From IMG/VR virus record IMGVR_UViG_648276670_000007, positions 1-5,691 of that record: a stretch of DNA of 5,691 nt, one strand, 5' to 3'. The first letter of the stretch is position 1; each line of letters opens with the position of its first letter. Shown in pieces: positions 1 to 5,691 of this stretch. The notes beneath the pieces were generated by a model. That model saw only the letters and a list, made by a program, of their open reading frames with translations. It had not been told where the DNA came from and searched no databases. The translations under genes and the position numbers were made by a program. Source of the DNA: a virus (taxonomy: Duplodnaviria > Heunggongvirae > Uroviricota > Caudoviricetes).

Positions 1-390
1 TTACTCTTTTTTCTCCGTATCTACATCGGGTTCATCAGCAAATAGCTTGCCCTGCATCCGATCCAGTTCTTCTTTTCTTACCCGCTTAACCACGCTGTAG
101 ACCCACTGAAGCGAAACACCAAATTTGCGGGCCAGTTCATGGTGATTACGTCCGTTAAACTCCCTGAAGATTTCCCGGTCGCGCTGACTGACCTTCCATA
201 CCATGCCCATCGGGAAATAAACGTTTTGCCCGCCCCAGACCTGCATCATGCGGTTCGCGACGGCCTGACCAATCTGGTCGGCAATTGCGGGCTCAATATC
301 AATAATCTCGCGAACGGTCTCAGAGGTATGCTGTGCCAGTTCCACCAGGAGTTCCGGCCCTTTACTTCGAAACTGATTCAGGTCGCTCAT
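1..390 (-). CDS. mor: Mor/C-family transcriptional activator (middle operon regulator) of a Mu-like phage, complete 129 aa
   Basis: ATG at 390 with GGAG 6 nt upstream, TAA stop at 1-3. The C-terminal part (YFPMG...RDREIFREFNGRNHHELARKFGVSLQWVYSVVKR) matches the Mor/C family HTH signature as I recall it. Sits immediately after a GemA-like gene, as in Mu. Overlaps the gemA 3' end by 29 nt. Confidence 0.85.
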   Translation of the reverse strand: MSDLNQFRSKGPELLVELAQHTSETVREIIDIEPAIADQIGQAVANRMMQVWGGQNVYFPMGMVWKVSQRDREIFREFNGRNHHELARKFGVSLQWVYSVVKRVRKEELDRMQGKLFADEPDVDTEKKE

Positions 391-814
391 GTTTTACTCC
401 CGCAGCTCTGCGCTGCCACTTCTTCAGTTTCTCAATAACACTGCTTGCCTGTTCAGTATTGAGCCAGCGCAGGGCGCTGATGCCCGTTTCCCGCTTGATC
501 CACCGCGCTAATGCATTTTCTGAACGGTCACGAACAATGCCGGCAGCAGCCATTTCAAGCCATAGCGCACGGATTTTCCTGGATTGCGGATGGTTATCCA
601 GCGGTAAACCGGAGCTGGCTTTTCCTGCAGGCCTAACGCGAAAGCCTTTCCTTTTCATGGATTCCAGCACGCAGTTTAGTTGTGTGGTATCCATTCCTTT
701 GGTTGAGGCTTTACCGGTCAGCCCCTGTAACATCTGGCGGTAGGTGTCTTCATCCATACCCAGTTCATTACGGGCAATATGAATGAGCTGGATAAGACGT
801 TGTTTAGTCATCAT
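362..814 (-). CDS. gemA: GemA-like (Mu gp16, DUF1018) regulatory protein
   Basis: N-terminal TKQRLIQLIHIARNELGMDEDTYRQML resembles the GemA/gp16 family signature. Start chosen at ATG 814 because AAGGAG lies 5 nt upstream; the longest ORF starts at ATG 853 but has no SD. TAA stop at 362-364. Confidence 0.75.
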   Translation of the reverse strand: MMTKQRLIQLIHIARNELGMDEDTYRQMLQGLTGKASTKGMDTTQLNCVLESMKRKGFRVRPAGKASSGLPLDNHPQSRKIRALWLEMAAAGIVRDRSENALARWIKRETGISALRWLNTEQASSVIEKLKKWQRRAAGVKHERPESVSK

Positions 815-1019
815 CGTTGCTCCTTCTGCCTGCATCACCGATATAATCGACATATAAAGGAAGTGCCACAGGCCAGCACAGGAACATCACCGACCAGCTA
901 ATCCAGTAACCGGCACCACTGTAACGTGAATAAAACCCTGAACGGCGGTGCAGTTCAGCAGTACACCAACCGACAAAACAATACCAGAACAGGGCACATA
1001 CAACAGATTCAGTCGTCAT
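804..1019 (-). CDS. small hydrophobic (probable membrane) protein, about 71 aa
   Basis: Internal ATG at 1019 of the 804-1175 ORF, chosen because the longer form would overlap the neighbouring ORF by about 167 nt. Two hydrophobic segments (VVCALFWYCFVGW, YWISWSVMFLCWPVALPL) and an acidic C-terminus. A G-rich tract lies 9 nt upstream. Start is uncertain. Confidence 0.35.
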   Translation of the reverse strand: MTTESVVCALFWYCFVGWCTAELHRRSGFYSRYSGAGYWISWSVMFLCWPVALPLYVDYIGDAGRRSNDDD

Positions 1020-1239
1020 TCTGAATATCCCCCCAACTGATATGAATATTACGGGCAGCAATGACAGGGTCTTTATTCCACCATGCACCTGACATGTATT
1101 TTTCAACCTGTTCGCGTCCGGCAATAACACCAATTGTGATCCCCGGCCTGACGTTCTTAAAAAAGGCGCGGGCAAAAAGGTATCTGGCAGATATTCGGCA
1201 GGCTTTTAATTTCCGGCTGTTACCTGATAACGTAATCAT
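1009..1239 (-). CDS. hypothetical protein, 76 aa
   Basis: ATG at 1239 overlaps the TGA of the upstream gene (ATGA coupling), with GGAGG 4 nt upstream. No recognisable family. Confidence 0.4.
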   Translation of the reverse strand: MITLSGNSRKLKACRISARYLFARAFFKNVRPGITIGVIAGREQVEKYMSGAWWNKDPVIAARNIHISWGDIQNDD

Positions 1240-1919
1240 CTGGCCTCCAGTTTCTGCTGTTCCCGCCCACTGACCGGTCGGTGCAGTCTGACGTTCTGCC
1301 CTTCTCGAAACCCCGCATAGCGCGAGGCGTCGCCATTGCGACTTCTTCCCGGTTTACGCGCCCTGGTGGTTTGCGTCTGCGGGTATTTATGTTCCAGCCA
1401 CTGCTGCATCAGTTCACGTTCGTCATCGGTCAGGGCGAAGGACTGTATTTCACTGATAACGGCCAGCACCCAGCCTTCAGCAAACTGGTCTCCACGGCTG
1501 GTGCGGGTGGCGGTTTTTATTCTTTTGTTCTGTGCACTGATATACTGCTGACGCGCCTTTTTCAGCTGACGGGCCAGCACTTCCCAGGTGTACGCGGCCA
1601 GTGCGGCCCGTTCCCGGTTGCCGTAGAACCCCACACCCGGATATGTGCCGGGGTGAATGATGGAGTTAACACCAAATGCCTCGCGGATGATGTTCATCAG
1701 GCCCAGCATGTAGCGCGGCGGACGGAGGCTGCCTGTCGGCCAGTAGTGACTGATGGTTTCATCAATATCACTCATGGCGATGTCGGAATGTGTGATGCCG
1801 TGAACATCCATCAGTTTACGGGCGCGGCGCAGTGCCAGAGCAGCCTCATGCGGGTTGCCGGATGCTGCCAGCGCCAGCAACTTTTTCAGTTTCTCAATGT
1901 GCTTATCCTGGTCTGTCAT
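1236..1919 (-). CDS. DUF2786-like phage protein, 227 aa, with a basic Arg-rich C-terminal tail
   Basis: N-terminal HIEKLKKLLALAASGNPHEAALALRRARKLMDVHGI resembles the DUF2786 motif as I recall it; unverified. ATG at 1919 overlaps the stop of the upstream small ORF (ATGA). Confidence 0.5.
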   Translation of the reverse strand: MTDQDKHIEKLKKLLALAASGNPHEAALALRRARKLMDVHGITHSDIAMSDIDETISHYWPTGSLRPPRYMLGLMNIIREAFGVNSIIHPGTYPGVGFYGNRERAALAAYTWEVLARQLKKARQQYISAQNKRIKTATRTSRGDQFAEGWVLAVISEIQSFALTDDERELMQQWLEHKYPQTQTTRARKPGRSRNGDASRYAGFREGQNVRLHRPVSGREQQKLEAR

Positions 1920-2116
1920 TGTTCAGTATCTCCGGTATTTTTTTGCTGTTCCCATGCCCGAACAGCGTCGGACAGCTCTTTCAGGCTGTATGCTGCTTTA
2001 AGCTTTTCCCATAACCACTGCGTCACCACGTGGGTCAGCAGGGCAACCAGGGCGAATCCGGCGCAGATGCACACGGCTATACCAGTAAGCAGGAAAGCCC
2101 ATACCACAATTTCCAT
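1916..2116 (-). CDS. small single-pass membrane protein, about 66 aa
   Basis: Internal ATG at 2116, 7 nt after the stop of the upstream gene; the longer 1916-2353 form would overlap that gene by 230 nt in another frame. One clear TM segment (IVVWAFLLTGIAVCICAGFALVALL) followed by a charged C-terminal helix. Confidence 0.4.
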   Translation of the reverse strand: MEIVVWAFLLTGIAVCICAGFALVALLTHVVTQWLWEKLKAAYSLKELSDAVRAWEQQKNTGDTEQ

Positions 2117-2123
2117 AATGGTG

Positions 2124-2507
2124 TCAGTCACTGGTACCTCCTGTGGTGGTCTGGTCAGGTGCGGCGTGTGTCCTGTGGTATTTCCTGAACCAGTGGTACA
2201 GGGCAGCCAGTTTTCTGTCGATAACTTCAGTTTCCCTGTTGAAGTATTCCTGTGCCTCTTTCTCCTCTTGCGGCGGCAGTTCGCCCGGCCCACACAGGGT
2301 GTTGTAAATCCACGCCATGCCGTTCCTGGCATCACCGGTGGCCCGCCACTCAATCACTGCAGCTTTCATGACGACCAGATTGCGCCCGAAGTACAGGTCC
2401 ACCTCTTCAAATCTCTTGCGCAGGTATTCGTTTTCGTCTTCCAGTACCCGAATACGCTGTGCAGCATCTTCCGGCGTCAGTTGTGGCGTCTGTTCGGTGC
2501 GGTTCAT
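2124..2507 (-). CDS. hypothetical protein, 127 aa, acidic N-terminal region with coiled-coil character
   Basis: ATG at 2507 overlaps the stop of the MazG-like ORF (ATGA). No recognisable family. Confidence 0.55.
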   Translation of the reverse strand: MNRTEQTPQLTPEDAAQRIRVLEDENEYLRKRFEEVDLYFGRNLVVMKAAVIEWRATGDARNGMAWIYNTLCGPGELPPQEEKEAQEYFNRETEVIDRKLAALYHWFRKYHRTHAAPDQTTTGGTSD

Positions 2508-2806
2508 ATGATTTCTCCGGTGTATGTGACGCCCAGCCGTGCGGCAAGGCGTTCCAGTTTTTTCTGTTTGTGGAAGTCAATCAGCCGGTCCATTCCCTGA
2601 AGGCGCAGCTGCTCTGTCATGATTTCCACGTCTGCCAGCTCTGCCGCGAGGTCACTTTCGCTGCCCTGTCCGTTCAGGTTGCGGGCGGCACTGGCCGCCA
2701 GTTCAGCGGCCTCTTCTGTCAGTTTCAGGGCCTGTGCGTCCGGCCCGAAACGCTGCAGGGCCAGACGGTAGAGGGCGGTGCGGGTGAGTTCGGTGTTCCG
2801 TGTCAT
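2504..2806 (-). CDS. MazG-like nucleotide pyrophosphohydrolase domain protein, 100 aa
   Basis: Two acidic helices (LTEEAAELAASAAR and DLAAELADVEIMTEQL) resemble the metal-binding EExxE / ExxD motifs of small all-alpha MazG/HisE-type NTP pyrophosphatases. GAGGG lies 6 nt upstream of ATG 2806. Assignment is from motif recognition only. Confidence 0.5.
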   Translation of the reverse strand: MTRNTELTRTALYRLALQRFGPDAQALKLTEEAAELAASAARNLNGQGSESDLAAELADVEIMTEQLRLQGMDRLIDFHKQKKLERLAARLGVTYTGEII

Positions 2807-2815
2807 GCCGCGCCC

Positions 2816-3088
2816 TCAGTGTTTCCGGTCGACGGTGATGTTCAGGCCGCCTTCTGCAGTGGTTTCCACCCGGTACGGCACCTCGTGCTCTGCCGTGTGG
2901 GTGAGTGTGTTCATCAGTACCTGCAGGGCAGCCTCCTTTCCGTTGGTTGCCACAATGGCCTGCGTGGCCATGCTGATTAGCGCCGTCAGGACGTGCTTCA
3001 CATCGGTGAGGTCGCGGCATTCACACTCGTTGACATAGTGTTCAACAAGAGTTCGGGTGCGCTGTCGTGCTTCCTGTGGGGTAATCAT
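2816..3088 (-). CDS. hypothetical protein, 90 aa
   Basis: ATG at 3088 overlaps the TGA of the zinc-ribbon ORF (ATGA coupling). No recognisable family. Confidence 0.5.
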   Translation of the reverse strand: MITPQEARQRTRTLVEHYVNECECRDLTDVKHVLTALISMATQAIVATNGKEAALQVLMNTLTHTAEHEVPYRVETTAEGGLNITVDRKH

Positions 3089-3279
3089 TGCGCGTCCTCC
3101 CTGTCAGGGCGGGAGAATTCCATGACGGGCACGTCCGCCGAAAAATGCTGGCTGCAGTACGGACAGACCAGGGTGACACGTACTGCAGGTACGTGGTACT
3201 TACCGGACATCACGGCGATGGCGCTGTGAAAACGCAGGGCTGTTATATCCCTCTCGCACTGAATACATTTAAATATCAT
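3085..3279 (-). CDS. small zinc-ribbon protein, 64 aa (CxxC...CxxC)
   Basis: Cys pairs at residues 5/8 and 39/42 (CIQC ... CPYC). AGGAGA SD 8 nt upstream of ATG 3279. First gene after the gam-downstream intergenic region. Confidence 0.55.
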   Translation of the reverse strand: MIFKCIQCERDITALRFHSAIAVMSGKYHVPAVRVTLVCPYCSQHFSADVPVMEFSRPDREDAQ

Positions 3280-3297
3280 AATTTAATTCTCCTCTGT

Positions 3298-3334
3298 TTC
3301 CGGCGTGCAGAAGCCCACGGCGCTGACGCCGGAA
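3298..3334. promoter_or_regulatory. intergenic stem-loop (9-bp perfect stem TTCCGGCGT/ACGCCGGAA, 19-nt loop) between gam and the zinc-ribbon gene
   Basis: Inverted repeat read directly from the sequence. No U-run follows it on either strand, so it is not a canonical intrinsic terminator. It ends 4 nt before the SD of the downstream ORF and is flanked by an AT-rich tract (3335-3370). Confidence 0.4.
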
Positions 3335-3376
3335 TAAAAAAGAAAATGTTTTTATTAAATAATTAACGTGGTGTGT

Positions 3377-3907
3377 TTACTGCACATCCTGCTCAAAAGG
3401 AATTATTGAAAAATCCTCAATATCACTTTTTATGGTAATACCGGGAATATTTTTCACGGCGTCCTTTTCATTCAGGATAGCGTCTTTATTTATTTCCTCC
3501 TTTACACGGATAAAGCGCTCAAGCCCCAGACGTCTCAGTAATTCAATAACATTATCCGCCCCACGGATACTGACTGATGGCGGACGGTTTCGCCACTGCA
3601 CCTCGCCGGTGGTGAGGTTAGCGAACTTCACCTTCCCGTTGCCGGTCAGTTCATCACGGTGTGCCTCACACCATGTCTGAATACCGGACTGCAGTTCGGC
3701 CATGCGTTTTTTCAGGCTCTCGGTGAGCGGGGCATAACGTGCGGTGATATCGCCAATGGCGTCATTCATTTCTGTTTCAGCCCTGACCAGTTCACGGTGT
3801 GCGTCACCGAGCAGTCTGATGCCCTCAATGACCTCTTCACGTGTCCCCGGCACCCAGAGTGCTGCTGCGGCCTTGATACGTTTTGCACCTTTTGTACTTT
3901 TTGCCAT
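3377..3907 (-). CDS. gam: Gam-like host-nuclease inhibitor (Mu Gam family), 176 aa
   Basis: Size, position downstream of B, and motifs (MAKSTKGAKRIKAAAALWVP..., RPPSVSIRG..., GITIKSDIEDFSIIPFEQ) match Mu Gam as I recall it. ATG at 3907, TAA at 3377-3379. Confidence 0.8.
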   Translation of the reverse strand: MAKSTKGAKRIKAAAALWVPGTREEVIEGIRLLGDAHRELVRAETEMNDAIGDITARYAPLTESLKKRMAELQSGIQTWCEAHRDELTGNGKVKFANLTTGEVQWRNRPPSVSIRGADNVIELLRRLGLERFIRVKEEINKDAILNEKDAVKNIPGITIKSDIEDFSIIPFEQDVQ

Positions 3908-3934
3908 TTTTTATGATTTCTCCAGTTGTGCTGA

Positions 3935-4204
3935 TTACCACAAAGATTCCGGCCACACGACGCGACAGCCGTGCAGTTCGAAAACGCCCTGACGGAAATA
4001 TCCCCTGTGGTCATGTCCGGTATACAGATAACAGGCCTTTCCCTGCTCAAGCATGCGCATGCAATGCGCACTCCTGGAAACGCGGATGACAGGTTTGTTA
4101 CCCCTGATGGTGATGCTTTGTACATCCGTGTTCGTCGCCTTAAGCGCCATAATGGCTGACTGCACTTTACTGATTTGCTGGTTGATACCTGTGGTGGATT
4201 TCAT
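3935..4204 (-). CDS. hypothetical protein, 89 aa, in the position of Mu kil/cim
   Basis: ATG at 4204 lies 2 nt after the TAA of the B-like gene; GGGG lies 8 nt upstream. No recognisable family; the positional analogy is the only basis. Confidence 0.5.
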   Translation of the reverse strand: MKSTTGINQQISKVQSAIMALKATNTDVQSITIRGNKPVIRVSRSAHCMRMLEQGKACYLYTGHDHRGYFRQGVFELHGCRVVWPESLW

Positions 4205-4206
4205 TA

Positions 4207-5103
4207 TTAAACCCCTTTGACAACGTCAGCGTTGACCTGTGGAACCCCGATTTCAGCGGCCAGATTCATGGCGGCTATTACCAGGTTACTGACGGCCAGC
4301 GGATACAGCAGGCTGACCATATTTTTACGATGACTTCCCGGATTGCTCAGGCGGGTACGTATGGCATCCACTGCGCTGGCGTCCATAATGTCCGTCAGTT
4401 GTTTACCGGCCCGTTGCAGTTTGAACGTCAGAAATTCTTCAAGGTGATTGTCCAGAGGCAGAAGTTCGACCACCTCACAGCGCTGAACGACTTCGCGGAC
4501 TTCCATGTTGCGTTCAGACAGTTTTGTCGCCAGTTCCGGCTGGCCAATCAGCACGATGGACAGCAGTTTTTTGAAACCGGACTCCAGCTCAAAAAAGCGT
4601 TTGAGGTGTTTCAGTGTCGGAATGGGCAGACTGTGGGCCTCCTCAATCACCAGAACGTGGCTGAACCCCGCCTGGCTGCTGTCTTTCAGGACGCGATGCA
4701 ACTGGCGAAAGCGGGCGTCCTGACTGCGTCTGATGCTTTCCAGTGGCGCGATGGTACTGATAATGGCTTCGGCAATAGCTGCTGCCTTCAGGGTTTTCCC
4801 TTTCACATCGTTGTCTTCCATGGCAATGATGTATGGCTCGATAACAATTACCGGCGCATTCTCGCGGTTGATACGTTCAGTCAGGTCACGGCGCAGCGTG
4901 GATTTACCCGCACCGGACTCACCGATGACGGCCATAAACCCACCATGACGGGCTGTCTGGTACAACGCCTCACGCACGTAGCGAATGTCTGGTGTGGTGA
5001 ACACATCATCAGAACCCTGCATGGCTTCGTCGACGAACGGGTCACGGAAAAGACCAAACGCTTTTTTGGTTGCTGGAAATAACACCTGTTTTTTGAGTAA
5101 CAT
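4207..5103 (-). CDS. AAA+ ATPase, MuB/TniB-like transposition target-capture protein, 298 aa
   Basis: Walker A GESGAGKST at residues 61-69 and Walker B-like hhhhEE (HVLVIEEAH) at about 149-157. GAGGA SD 7 nt upstream of ATG 5103. Followed by kil-position and gam genes, as in Mu. The reading frame stays open for a further 42 codons upstream, up to a TGA at 5230-5232 (see findings). Confidence 0.8.
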   Translation of the reverse strand: MLLKKQVLFPATKKAFGLFRDPFVDEAMQGSDDVFTTPDIRYVREALYQTARHGGFMAVIGESGAGKSTLRRDLTERINRENAPVIVIEPYIIAMEDNDVKGKTLKAAAIAEAIISTIAPLESIRRSQDARFRQLHRVLKDSSQAGFSHVLVIEEAHSLPIPTLKHLKRFFELESGFKKLLSIVLIGQPELATKLSERNMEVREVVQRCEVVELLPLDNHLEEFLTFKLQRAGKQLTDIMDASAVDAIRTRLSNPGSHRKNMVSLLYPLAVSNLVIAAMNLAAEIGVPQVNADVVKGV

Positions 5104-5143
5104 ATTCTCTTCCTCACTGAGGCTCGTTTTATCTGTGGTACCC

Positions 5144-5175
5144 GCTGTACGGGGCGTGGCCGCGCCCTGTACAGC
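5144..5175. repeat. 32-bp GC-rich near-perfect palindrome (GCTGTACGGGGCGTGGCCGCGCCCTGTACAGC)
   Basis: 28 of 32 positions are self-complementary; the 4 mismatches are two T/G pairs that would be G-U wobbles in a plus-strand RNA. Lies 41-72 nt upstream of the B start codon, between B and the IS end. Confidence 0.6.
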
Positions 5176-5227
5176 ATCAAAACTCTTCGCTGTATCAATC
5201 CCCTGACTTTCCAGCCAGGACGCAAGA

Positions 5228-5691
<464 letters not shown>

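Follow-up and report, generated by a model that had tools for sequence, protein, structure and literature searches.

The early operon of a Mu-like prophage, carried in the 5,691-nucleotide window analysed here, probably includes a small relative of the all-α NTP pyrophosphohydrolases that may shape the nucleotide pool, and the gene that follows it is probably part of a separate accessory cassette. The first gene, a predicted single-domain MazG/HisE-like all-α NTP pyrophosphohydrolase of 100 residues, lies at 2504–2806 on the minus strand (ORF list and RefSeq CDS). The second, at 2124–2507 on the same strand (ORF list, RefSeq CDS and homology), encodes a helical protein of 127 residues that resembles a stand-alone Ead/Ea22-like C-terminal module. 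RefSeq annotates both coding sequences as well, in an E. coli chromosome of 99.9% identity. Judged by the many homologues of each and by conservation at the protein level, both ORFs are real genes.

The source element is a transposable E. coli prophage of BcepMu/Mu-like type, with both ORFs in its early region. The window region is 96.8% identical to PhiKM (an Escherichia phage of the genus Bcepmuvirus) and 99.9% identical to a prophage of E. coli MS20655, which has the transposase and repressor-side genes. Pfam and PHROG matches identified Gam, GemA, Mor, an ExeA/MuB-like ATPase and a DUF2786 protein around the two ORFs, with gam upstream of them and gemA/mor downstream, which agrees with the early-operon location proposed in a sequence-only reading of this DNA. 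The window is thus the early ("semi-essential") region of the prophage, with all genes on the minus strand in one operon. About 8 of its 12 gene junctions overlap, 4 of them by 4 nt (from ORF and RefSeq coordinates). A promoter/terminator scan returned no promoter-like or minus-strand terminator-like sites within 1800–3500, and an Rfam search of the window gave no matches. In the window genome IS100 starts at 5228 and severs the operon from the transposase/promoter side, which may disturb the normal expression of this copy.

The gene at 2504–2806 very probably specifies a nucleotide pyrophosphatase of the MazG type; phages are already known to carry such enzymes. Residues 1–97 of its product matched PHROG 2245, "nucleoside triphosphate pyrophosphohydrolase" (E 5.7e-34), and the three next-best PHROG matches were to NTP-PPase/MazG-like families as well. 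A close homologue found at the same position in E. coli prophages (WP_000197789.1; DNA ~99% identical over the gene) is named "nucleoside triphosphate pyrophosphohydrolase family protein" in RefSeq, and the window copy and its nearest RefSeq twin, WP_000197790.1, are both labelled "hypothetical protein".

No curated family threshold in Pfam or NCBIfam was reached by the protein. For Pfam PRA-PH (PF01503) it reached 15.0 bits (E 0.034) where 21.3 are required, no match to Pfam MazG (PF03819) was reported for it, and NCBIfam returned only a 14-bit match to HisE. Sub-threshold Pfam matches recurred in its homologues, 13/20 of which matched PRA-PH and 7/20 MazG. The best of these among the homologues scanned had E values of 1.7e-4 (PRA-PH) and 0.002 (MazG), and the top one of the MazG scores shown, 18.8 bits, fell short of the cut-off of 22. 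Relatives from Bacteroidota and Firmicutes, taken as a bridge past the Pfam MazG threshold, were still below it (E 0.002–0.02). HMMER searches of PDB sequences with the single sequence gave chance matches only, as did searches with two family profiles (A1, 20 sequences; A3, 33 sequences). Aligning profile A3 with single E. coli MazG and HisI sequences in hhalign gave probabilities <1%, a result that is uninformative rather than negative because a single-sequence template is too weak. Since the protein falls below the MazG and PRA-PH cut-offs, we place it at the level of the superfamily, outside both families proper.

The predicted structure and its residues fit the superfamily. The AF2 model (pLDDT 90.9) is helical, and the two acidic helices noticed by the sequence-only reading appear in it as helix 22–44, bearing E31-E32-A-A-E35, and helix 50–91, bearing E56-L-A-D59-V-E61...E65. 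The solved structures nearest to the model are MazG and HisE enzymes, with Foldseek E values all >0.5. Superfamily members have an all-helical core, here with other members as the nearest structural neighbours, and four acidic Mg2+-binding residues on two adjacent helices in a pattern of (E)ExxE, 12–28 residues and ExxD, here, on the two central helices, E31-E32-A-A-E35, 20 residues and E56-L-A-D59. This spacing agrees with that of the Mg ligands of Mtb MazG (E119, E122, E138, D141) and C. jejuni dUTPase (E46, E49, E74, D77; PMC10014863), the comparison being one of spacing. E32, E35, E56 and D59 are therefore putative Mg ligands, with E31 beside them.

These residues are highly conserved. Among 136 unique relatives E31 is kept in 96%, E32 in 92%, E35 in 93%, E56 in 93% and D59 in 98%, and the basic residues K80, K83 and R86 in 96%, 92% and 96%, respectively; R42 is also a conserved basic residue. 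The EExxEL motif is retained in Bacteroidota and Firmicutes relatives at 30–40% identity, and in a few homologues position 32 or 35 is replaced by K. E61 and E65 are conserved in 100% of the 136, and together with Q66, likewise invariant, they are a peculiarity of this family. A second peculiarity is in the model, where one long helix (50–91) takes the place of the two found in classical MazG domains. From sequence and model combined, the protein is best described as a minimal single-domain member of the all-α NTP pyrophosphohydrolase superfamily (MazG, HisE and dimeric dUTPase); the suggested kinship with MazG/HisE-type pyrophosphatases thus holds, at superfamily level.

The gene was present in 621 of 5,426 complete E. 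coli genomes (~11%), and a tblastn search with the protein matched only 5 of 50,697 phage records. The subfamily that shares A-D-V-E-I-M-I-E-Q has a fixed place in the early operon of transposable prophages of the Mu-like and BcepMu-like kinds throughout Enterobacterales. More distant relatives lie among genes for RusA, DNA methylase, RecT/exonuclease and RNase H, surroundings that are DNA replication/recombination modules.

We propose that the 100-residue protein assembles as a dimer or tetramer, like its structural relatives, that its four acidic residues would bind Mg2+, and that its conserved basic residues would hold the phosphate chain. An NTP-type substrate would then be cleaved between the α and β phosphates to give NMP and PPi. 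Produced early after induction or infection, the enzyme could remodel the host's pool of nucleotides for replicative transposition, most likely by removing unwanted or non-canonical (d)NTPs and less likely by removing (p)ppGpp. The 127-residue protein would stand outside this function.

Could the protein instead be an enzyme dedicated to counter-defence or host takeover, with a signalling or antiviral nucleotide as its substrate, and not a cleaner of the dNTP pool? Candidate substrates would be immune second messengers, chain-terminator nucleotides or, as with Atd1, (p)ppGpp. A precedent comes from Pectobacterium phage PcCB7V, whose MazG-like pyrophosphatase Atd1 hydrolyses ppGpp and guards against the toxicity of TIR-STING and retron-TIR (bioRxiv 10.1101/2022.06.09.495361). 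The early accessory region of a temperate phage is also a frequent home of such functions, and the invariant E61, E65 and Q66 hint at a specialised site. However, PcCB7V is not among the five phage records matched by tblastn, so that this search revealed no sequence link to Atd1. The purified MazG of cyanophage S-PM2 prefers dGTP and dCTP and does not hydrolyse (p)ppGpp (PMC6850273), PADLOC gave no match for the 100-residue protein, and the replication/recombination setting of the distant relatives also speaks against a counter-defence role. We consider such a role unlikely. Equally doubtful is the related idea that the Pfam-invisible subfamily with the invariant A-D-V-E-I-M-I-E-Q is a specialised host-takeover or counter-defence enzyme, possibly working with the DUF2786/DUF7168 protein described below and not with the 127-residue protein.

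It is somewhat less probable still that the protein has a MazG-like fold without enzyme activity, serving as a sponge that binds nucleotides or as a small helical protein that regulates the Mu-like early programme or acts in it as an adaptor. The missed curated thresholds, the lack of a match among PDB sequences, the unusual single long helix in the model and the change of E32 or E35 to K in some homologues would all fit such a protein. Against it, four acidic and three to four basic residues are 92–100% conserved across relatives from Enterobacterales, Bacteroidota and Firmicutes, so that catalysis, or at least metal–nucleotide binding, is hard to avoid. The sequence-only reading had named two outcomes that would count against an enzyme. 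Neither was seen: profile and fold searches pointed to the MazG superfamily and not to a non-enzymatic helical family, and the acidic motif is conserved in the homologues at the levels just given.

The pyrophosphohydrolase relative had also been proposed to form a functional pair with the 127-residue protein, on the strength of the overlap between their genes. The overlap is there as described: the TGA of the first gene and the ATG of the second share an ATGA at 2504–2507, both genes being on the minus strand, where the junction reads ...GGAGAAATCATATGAACC... A GGAG lies 7 nt upstream of the 127-residue ATG, inside the end of the first gene. Such an arrangement would suit a translationally coupled pair, with the 127-residue protein as, for example, a regulator, specificity subunit or antidote, and the two genes are adjacent in 6/6 E. 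coli genomes and 3/3 viral contigs that carry the 127-residue gene. However, like overlaps occur in the same operon at 3085–3088, 1916–1919 and 1236–1239. Overlapping junctions are the rule in this operon, and the ATGA is therefore not specific evidence for this pair.

The co-occurrence counts largely refute a coupled pair. The 127-residue gene follows the MazG-like gene in 6 of the 621 E. coli genomes and is absent from the other 615, and no 127-like ORF was found within 4 kb of the MazG-like gene in any of 50 species-level loci. Conversely, of 80 viral loci that encode a 127-like domain, 77 have neither the MazG-like gene nor any Mu gene; most of these domains are Ea22-like fusions beside exo/bet in lambdoid phages. 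The remaining three viral loci, which have both genes, are all at least 98% identical, and with the six E. coli loci they make up a single lineage at that identity. Co-occurrence is thus limited to one narrow E. coli prophage lineage and does not extend across independent lineages, as it would for a two-gene module. With these counts, and with the insertion/deletion unit described next, the proposed pairing is unsupported; we regard it as very improbable.

The 127-residue gene shares its unit with a gene at 1916–2131 (minus strand; PHROG 3958, E 9e-37; RefSeq CDS) for a 71-residue protein with a putative single membrane span, which was interpreted by eye from a hydrophobic stretch in the sequence. 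This ORF starts with GTG, or encodes 66 residues if read from the ATG at 2116, and was found in all three viral loci that have both the 127-residue and the MazG-like gene. An 8-bp direct repeat, ACCGGAGA in minus-strand reading, lies at each edge of this unit: the upstream copy, at 2514–2521, contains the ribosome-binding site of the next gene, and the downstream copy is at 1929–1936 (both minus strand). In the common E. coli arrangement (L002) the junction corresponds exactly to the two junctions of the window joined at this repeat. By this comparison the 127- and 71-residue genes are a 585-bp insertion/deletion cassette bounded by the repeats, placed between the MazG-like gene and a DUF2786/DUF7168 gene, and the 127-residue gene is a swappable accessory with no conserved partnership with the MazG-like gene.

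The relatives of the 127-residue protein point the same way. Its residues ~9–124 are 51–57% identical to the C-terminal ~100 residues of Ea22-like proteins. In VT2-Sakai orf9, Pfam Ead_Ea22 (PF13935) covers residues 2–138 and the homologous region comes after it; the N-terminal region and central coiled coil that characterise Ead/Ea22-like proteins are missing from the window protein, which had no Pfam match at E up to 1. We therefore read it as a free-standing form of a C-terminal module that is elsewhere fused to Ea22-like coiled-coil proteins of Stx/lambdoid phages. A search of PDB sequences gave no match, although the C-terminal domain of lambda Ea22 (8DSX) was included, and the structure model is all-helical. 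The protein had been called acidic, and its pI of 5.27 agrees with this, but only mildly so (22 D+E against 17 K+R). We give next to no credence to its being DpdH of the Dpd 7-deazaguanine DNA-modification/restriction system, and reject that identity: PADLOC model PDLC02890 "DpdH" (127 positions) covers residues 1–127 at E 5e-92, but the NCBIfam DpdH model (1,014 positions) gave no match at E up to 1, no dpd genes are present in the window or the 12.7-kb locus L001, every relative is a phage Ea22-like protein, and the PADLOC label is most likely a mislabel, as a 127-position model at 2.4 bits/residue evidently derives from sequences that are nearly identical.

It is a DUF2786/DUF7168 protein, not the 127-residue protein, that recurs beside the MazG-like gene. 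In the window this is the 227-residue product of the gene at 1236–1919 on the minus strand (Pfam E 5.5e-26 and 4.4e-11 for the two domains). In the common E. coli arrangement its gene directly follows the MazG-like gene, and the two adjoin in 20 of the 50 species-level loci, two of which are in Chryseobacterium.

What do these results mean for Mu-like phages? If the enzyme is active, transposable prophages of this kind become a further phage group with a MazG-type nucleotide pyrophosphatase of its own. The 100-residue family is a compact subfamily overlooked by Pfam and NCBIfam, and many copies, the window's included, are therefore labelled "hypothetical protein". Its substrate would distinguish the cleaning of the dNTP pool before replicative transposition from interference with alarmone or immune signalling. 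As both activities are documented for other phage MazG proteins, the gain is incremental and the substrate ideas of the sequence-only reading (ppGpp, dNTPs, defence nucleotides) are not new; the protein is an unexceptional, uncharacterised representative of a known kind. The 127-residue gene should not be interpreted via the MazG-like gene, and the DUF2786/DUF7168 protein is the neighbour worth attention.

Compared with known systems, the 127-residue protein shares its module with the C termini of the Ea22-like proteins VT2-Sakai orf9 and 933W L0069, in keeping with Ea22 proteins being mosaics with interchangeable C-terminal domains (PMC10834534). It differs from Ead/Ea22-like proteins in lacking the Pfam Ead_Ea22 N-terminal and coiled-coil part, in its all-helical model, whereas the 8DSX domain of lambda has a mixed α-β fold, and in its location in a Mu-like early operon, whereas their genes lie in the exo-xis region. 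We found nothing specific in the literature on Ea22-like proteins in anti-defence work, or on a MazG-like gene in Mu-like or transposable phages.

The superfamily enzymes closest to the 100-residue protein are S. solfataricus MazG (1vmg), the HisE proteins of B. cereus and M. tuberculosis (1yvw/3c90) and the integron iMazG (2q5z). It differs from MazG and HisE in falling below both Pfam gathering scores, in having a helix after the motif that is predicted to be single and long, and in carrying, after the ExxD, the family-specific A-D-V-E-I-M-I-E-Q with the invariant E61, E65 and Q66 where HisE and MazG are hydrophobic. It belongs directly to PHROG 2245 and to the RefSeq family of WP_000197789.1, whose names are annotation labels only. 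The BLAST search showed no similarity to S-PM2 MazG or Atd1, and the phage type differs, its carrier being a transposable Mu-like prophage; the activity of neither protein can be transferred to it. Like both, however, it is a small phage-borne MazG-type protein, presumed to be expressed during infection to change host nucleotide pools.

The sequence-only reading of the 100-aa ORF (2504-2806, minus strand) as MazG-like was supported at the superfamily level, and we take its membership of the fold superfamily as shown. It matched PHROG 2245 "nucleoside triphosphate pyrophosphohydrolase" strongly (E 5.7e-34), and the PHROG matches ranked 2-4 were NTP-PPase or MazG-like families as well. In RefSeq, a close homologue that occupies this position in a prophage is called "nucleoside triphosphate pyrophosphohydrolase family protein", and several relatives carry the JGI name "NTP pyrophosphatase (non-canonical NTP hydrolase)". 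Matches of the protein itself to Pfam PRA-PH (15.0 bits, cut-off 21.3) and, in NCBIfam, to HisE (14 bits) were sub-threshold. Weak Pfam matches recurred in homologues (PRA-PH in 13/20, best E 1.7e-4; MazG in 7/20), and MazG was matched by 4/10 distant relatives (E 0.002-0.02). An AF2 model made with 20 homologues as input was confident (pLDDT 90.9), and a structure search listed, by rank 36, nine further superfamily members (2yxh, 2p06, 4qgp, 7bgm, 2yeu, 2gta, 2a3q, 2oie and similar). Foldseek listed the same families, none of them significantly, and searches of PDB sequences with the protein and the family profiles gave no match. The family constitutes a subfamily of its own, separate from Pfam MazG and PRA-PH proper. 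The protein belongs to a known type of phage enzyme and, although already annotated, is uncharacterised.

Both acidic helices described from the sequence were found: of the predicted helices, the one at 22-44 bears E31-E32-A-A-E35 and the one at 50-91 bears E56-L-A-D59-V-E61...E65. Across 136 unique full-length relatives the acidic motif was well conserved, with E31 kept in 96%, E32 in 92%, E35 in 93%, E56 in 93%, D59 in 98%, and E61 and E65 in 100%. Basic positions were also retained (K80, 96%; K83, 92%; R86, 96%), and R42, or K in its place, was kept in 95%. The relatives were retrieved by methods favouring shared words, and ADVEIM[IT]E was the pattern of the locus scan, so residues 58-65 are invariant partly by construction. 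EExxEL, by which the 15 distant loci (Bacteroidota, Firmicutes, others) had not been selected, was intact in all of them. The spacing of E32/E35/E56/D59 is compatible with that of the published Mg ligands of Mtb MazG (E119/E122/E138/D141) and C. jejuni dUTPase (E46/E49/E74/D77; PMC10014863), and this putative metal-binding constellation is conserved.

The gene lies within one tightly packed operon, and all real genes of 1-5227 are on the minus strand. The ORF listing and Pfam/PHROG place an ExeA/MuB-like AAA ATPase furthest upstream (4207-5103+), followed by an 89-aa protein (3935-4204), Gam (3377-3907), a 64-aa zinc-ribbon protein with two zinc-ribbon-like CxxC pairs (3085-3279; PHROG 3401), a 90-aa helical protein (2816-3088; PHROG 3691), the MazG-like gene, the 127-aa ORF (2124-2507), a 71-aa protein with one hydrophobic membrane-span-like stretch (1916-2131), a 227-aa DUF2786 + DUF7168 protein (1236-1919), two small proteins (804-1239), GemA (362-853) and Mor (1-390). 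The genes at 3085-3279 and 2816-3088, both small, conserved, early and upstream of the MazG-like gene, overlap each other by 4 nt. At the DNA level, identity to Escherichia phage PhiKM (genus Bcepmuvirus) is 96.8%, and the 731 bases at 2100-2830 are 99.9% identical to a prophage of E. coli MS20655, which has the same gene layout and, further upstream, a DDE transposase, a DUF3102 protein and HTH regulators. Given this likeness and layout, the window represents the "semi-essential" early region of a transposable, Mu-like prophage. Neither a sigma-70-like promoter nor a minus-strand terminator-like site was found in 1800-3500, and an Rfam search of the window gave no match. A 439-aa plus-strand ORF (1281-2600) runs antisense to the DUF2786, 71-aa and 127-aa genes and part of the MazG-like gene; RefSeq annotation across it has minus-strand genes only, and the ORF most likely arises as a shadow of the GC-rich coding strand.

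The left end of an IS100 element (IS21 family) is found at 5228 (TGTCACGAACGG...). This part of the element fills the window from there to 5691, with istA on the plus strand starting near 5314, and matches IS100 copies in phage records at 99.8% identity. It splits the ExeA/MuB-like ATPase gene, which, judged from relatives, would reach the equivalent of 5373 if intact. Thus, the rest of the operon is separated from the first ~49 codons of this gene, from the transposase gene and from the early promoter. The ORFs of the window are intact, yet their normal early expression in this genome is doubtful, and this prophage copy is probably defective.

That the 100-aa ORF ends in an overlap with the 127-aa start had been taken to suggest a functional pair. 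The overlap itself was confirmed: both ORFs are present on the minus strand and have the ATGA at 2504-2507 in common, with GGAG 7 nt 5' of the 127-aa ATG. It is not special. Overlaps of 4 nt occur at four operon junctions (3085-3088, 2504-2507, 1916-1919 and 1236-1239), and most other junctions overlap too. Co-occurrence counts and the cassette junction did not support a pair. The MazG-like gene is present in 621 of 5,426 complete E. coli genomes, and the 127-aa gene lies behind it in 6. In the commonest E. coli arrangement the DUF2786 gene comes straight after the MazG-like gene and overlaps it by 4 nt, and in PhiKM a 71-aa gene lies between the two. No ORF matching the 127-aa family profile was found within 4 kb at any of 50 species-level loci with a MazG-like relative (one genome per species). 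Of the 80 viral loci that best matched the 127-like domain, 77 had no MazG-like gene and no Mu genes; the only 3 with either share at least 98% identity with the window.

Comparison of the junctions revealed an 8-bp direct repeat, ACCGGAGA (minus-strand reading), at 2514-2521 and 1929-1936, whose copies overlap the ribosome-binding sites of successive genes and bracket 585 bp. Because the junction of the common arrangement (...GTACACCGGAGATACTGAACAATGACAGACC...) is an exact fusion of the window's two junctions across this repeat, we interpret the 127-aa and 71-aa genes as one 585-bp insertion/deletion cassette. This suggests gain or loss via recombination at conserved inter-gene junctions.

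The 127-aa protein, described as acidic, is so but mildly (pI 5.27). It had no match in Pfam or NCBIfam, and matched two function-unassigned families, PHROGs 18739 and 250. Exhaustive HMMER searching returned 261 representative clusters, in nearly all of which residues ~13-113 aligned with the C-terminal end of 130-320-aa proteins. By tblastn it matched 98 phage records at 51-64% identity, mostly Stx-converting and other lambdoid phages, in genes annotated ead/Ea22-like. For example, VT2-Sakai orf9, which encodes 257 aa and is flanked by a DksA-like gene and orf8 in the exo-xis region, has Pfam Ead_Ea22 at residues 2-138, and the region homologous to the 127-aa protein comes after it. Ea22 proteins are described as mosaics in which an N-terminal segment and a coiled coil are combined with C-terminal domains that can be exchanged, and the whole protein favours lysogeny (PMC10834534). 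In the AF2 model (pLDDT 83), residues 12-57 form a long helix and 61-71 a short one; a conserved G-P-G-E-L-P loop and a helix at 85-114 follow. By analogy, and speculatively, the protein may dimerise and serve as a module that binds a host factor. The PADLOC-DB model PDLC02890 "DpdH" (127 positions) matched it end to end (127/127, E 5e-92). We rejected this identity: NCBIfam DpdH (1,014 positions) gave no match and there were no dpd neighbours. PDLC02890 seems to bear a wrong label or to have been built on a hitch-hiking prophage gene.

GemA or Mor adjoins the MazG-like gene in 35 of the 50 species-level loci, which are Mu-like or BcepMu-like early regions in Enterobacterales. They include true Mu-type prophages (MuA, MuB, Kil, Gam), where the protein has a ~60-aa C-terminal extension. 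Such ~160-aa proteins occur in Salmonella, Klebsiella, Kluyvera and others (for example at 5001-5480 of locus L005), and the conserved extension of ~60 residues (columns ~105-190 of A3, the 33-sequence family alignment; ...LLxEAxEQLxxAxxLY.D...R.AA...R.AIxLLMQAAQxMIxEQQ...) matched no Pfam family. In the remaining 15 loci (Bacteroidota, Firmicutes, others) the neighbours are RusA, DNA methyltransferase, RecT/exonuclease/SSB and RNase H genes, sets typical of temperate-phage replication and recombination modules. Such surroundings suit a part in supplying nucleotides for phage DNA synthesis more than one in a defence island; PADLOC gave no match to the MazG-like gene. In a Thermoanaerobacterium locus (L055, 3812-4264) the MazG-like domain is apparently fused to an N-terminal CxxCxGxG-type zinc-finger segment (MEDKYKCPYCGGTGKE...CEHCHGSGKK), and an RNase H/SWIM protein follows this ORF.

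A DUF2786/DUF7168 protein adjoins the MazG-like gene in 20 of the 50 loci, with the stop-to-stop frames of the two genes at most 60 nt apart in 17 of these. It is on the downstream side in 18 Enterobacterales prophages, and directly upstream, in reversed order with a 2-nt overlap, in 2 Chryseobacterium (Bacteroidota) prophages (L046, 3217-3945; L058, 3226-3942). This may be a conserved association of two uncharacterised phage proteins, a lead rather than a result, and represents two independent lineages at most.

How might the 100-aa protein act? We propose that it would oligomerise, bind Mg2+ through the acidic residues, hold phosphates with the basic residues of the C-terminal helix, and cut an NTP-type substrate to NMP + PPi early after induction. 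In our judgement alone, there is an even chance that the substrate is a canonical or non-canonical (d)NTP. (p)ppGpp is an unlikely substrate, and other signalling or antiviral nucleotides are a long shot; that the protein is not catalytic is about as improbable as the latter. Precedent is divided: cyanophage MazG acts on dGTP/dCTP but does not hydrolyse (p)ppGpp (PMC6850273), and Atd1 cleaves ppGpp and weakens TIR-based defence (bioRxiv 10.1101/2022.06.09.495361).
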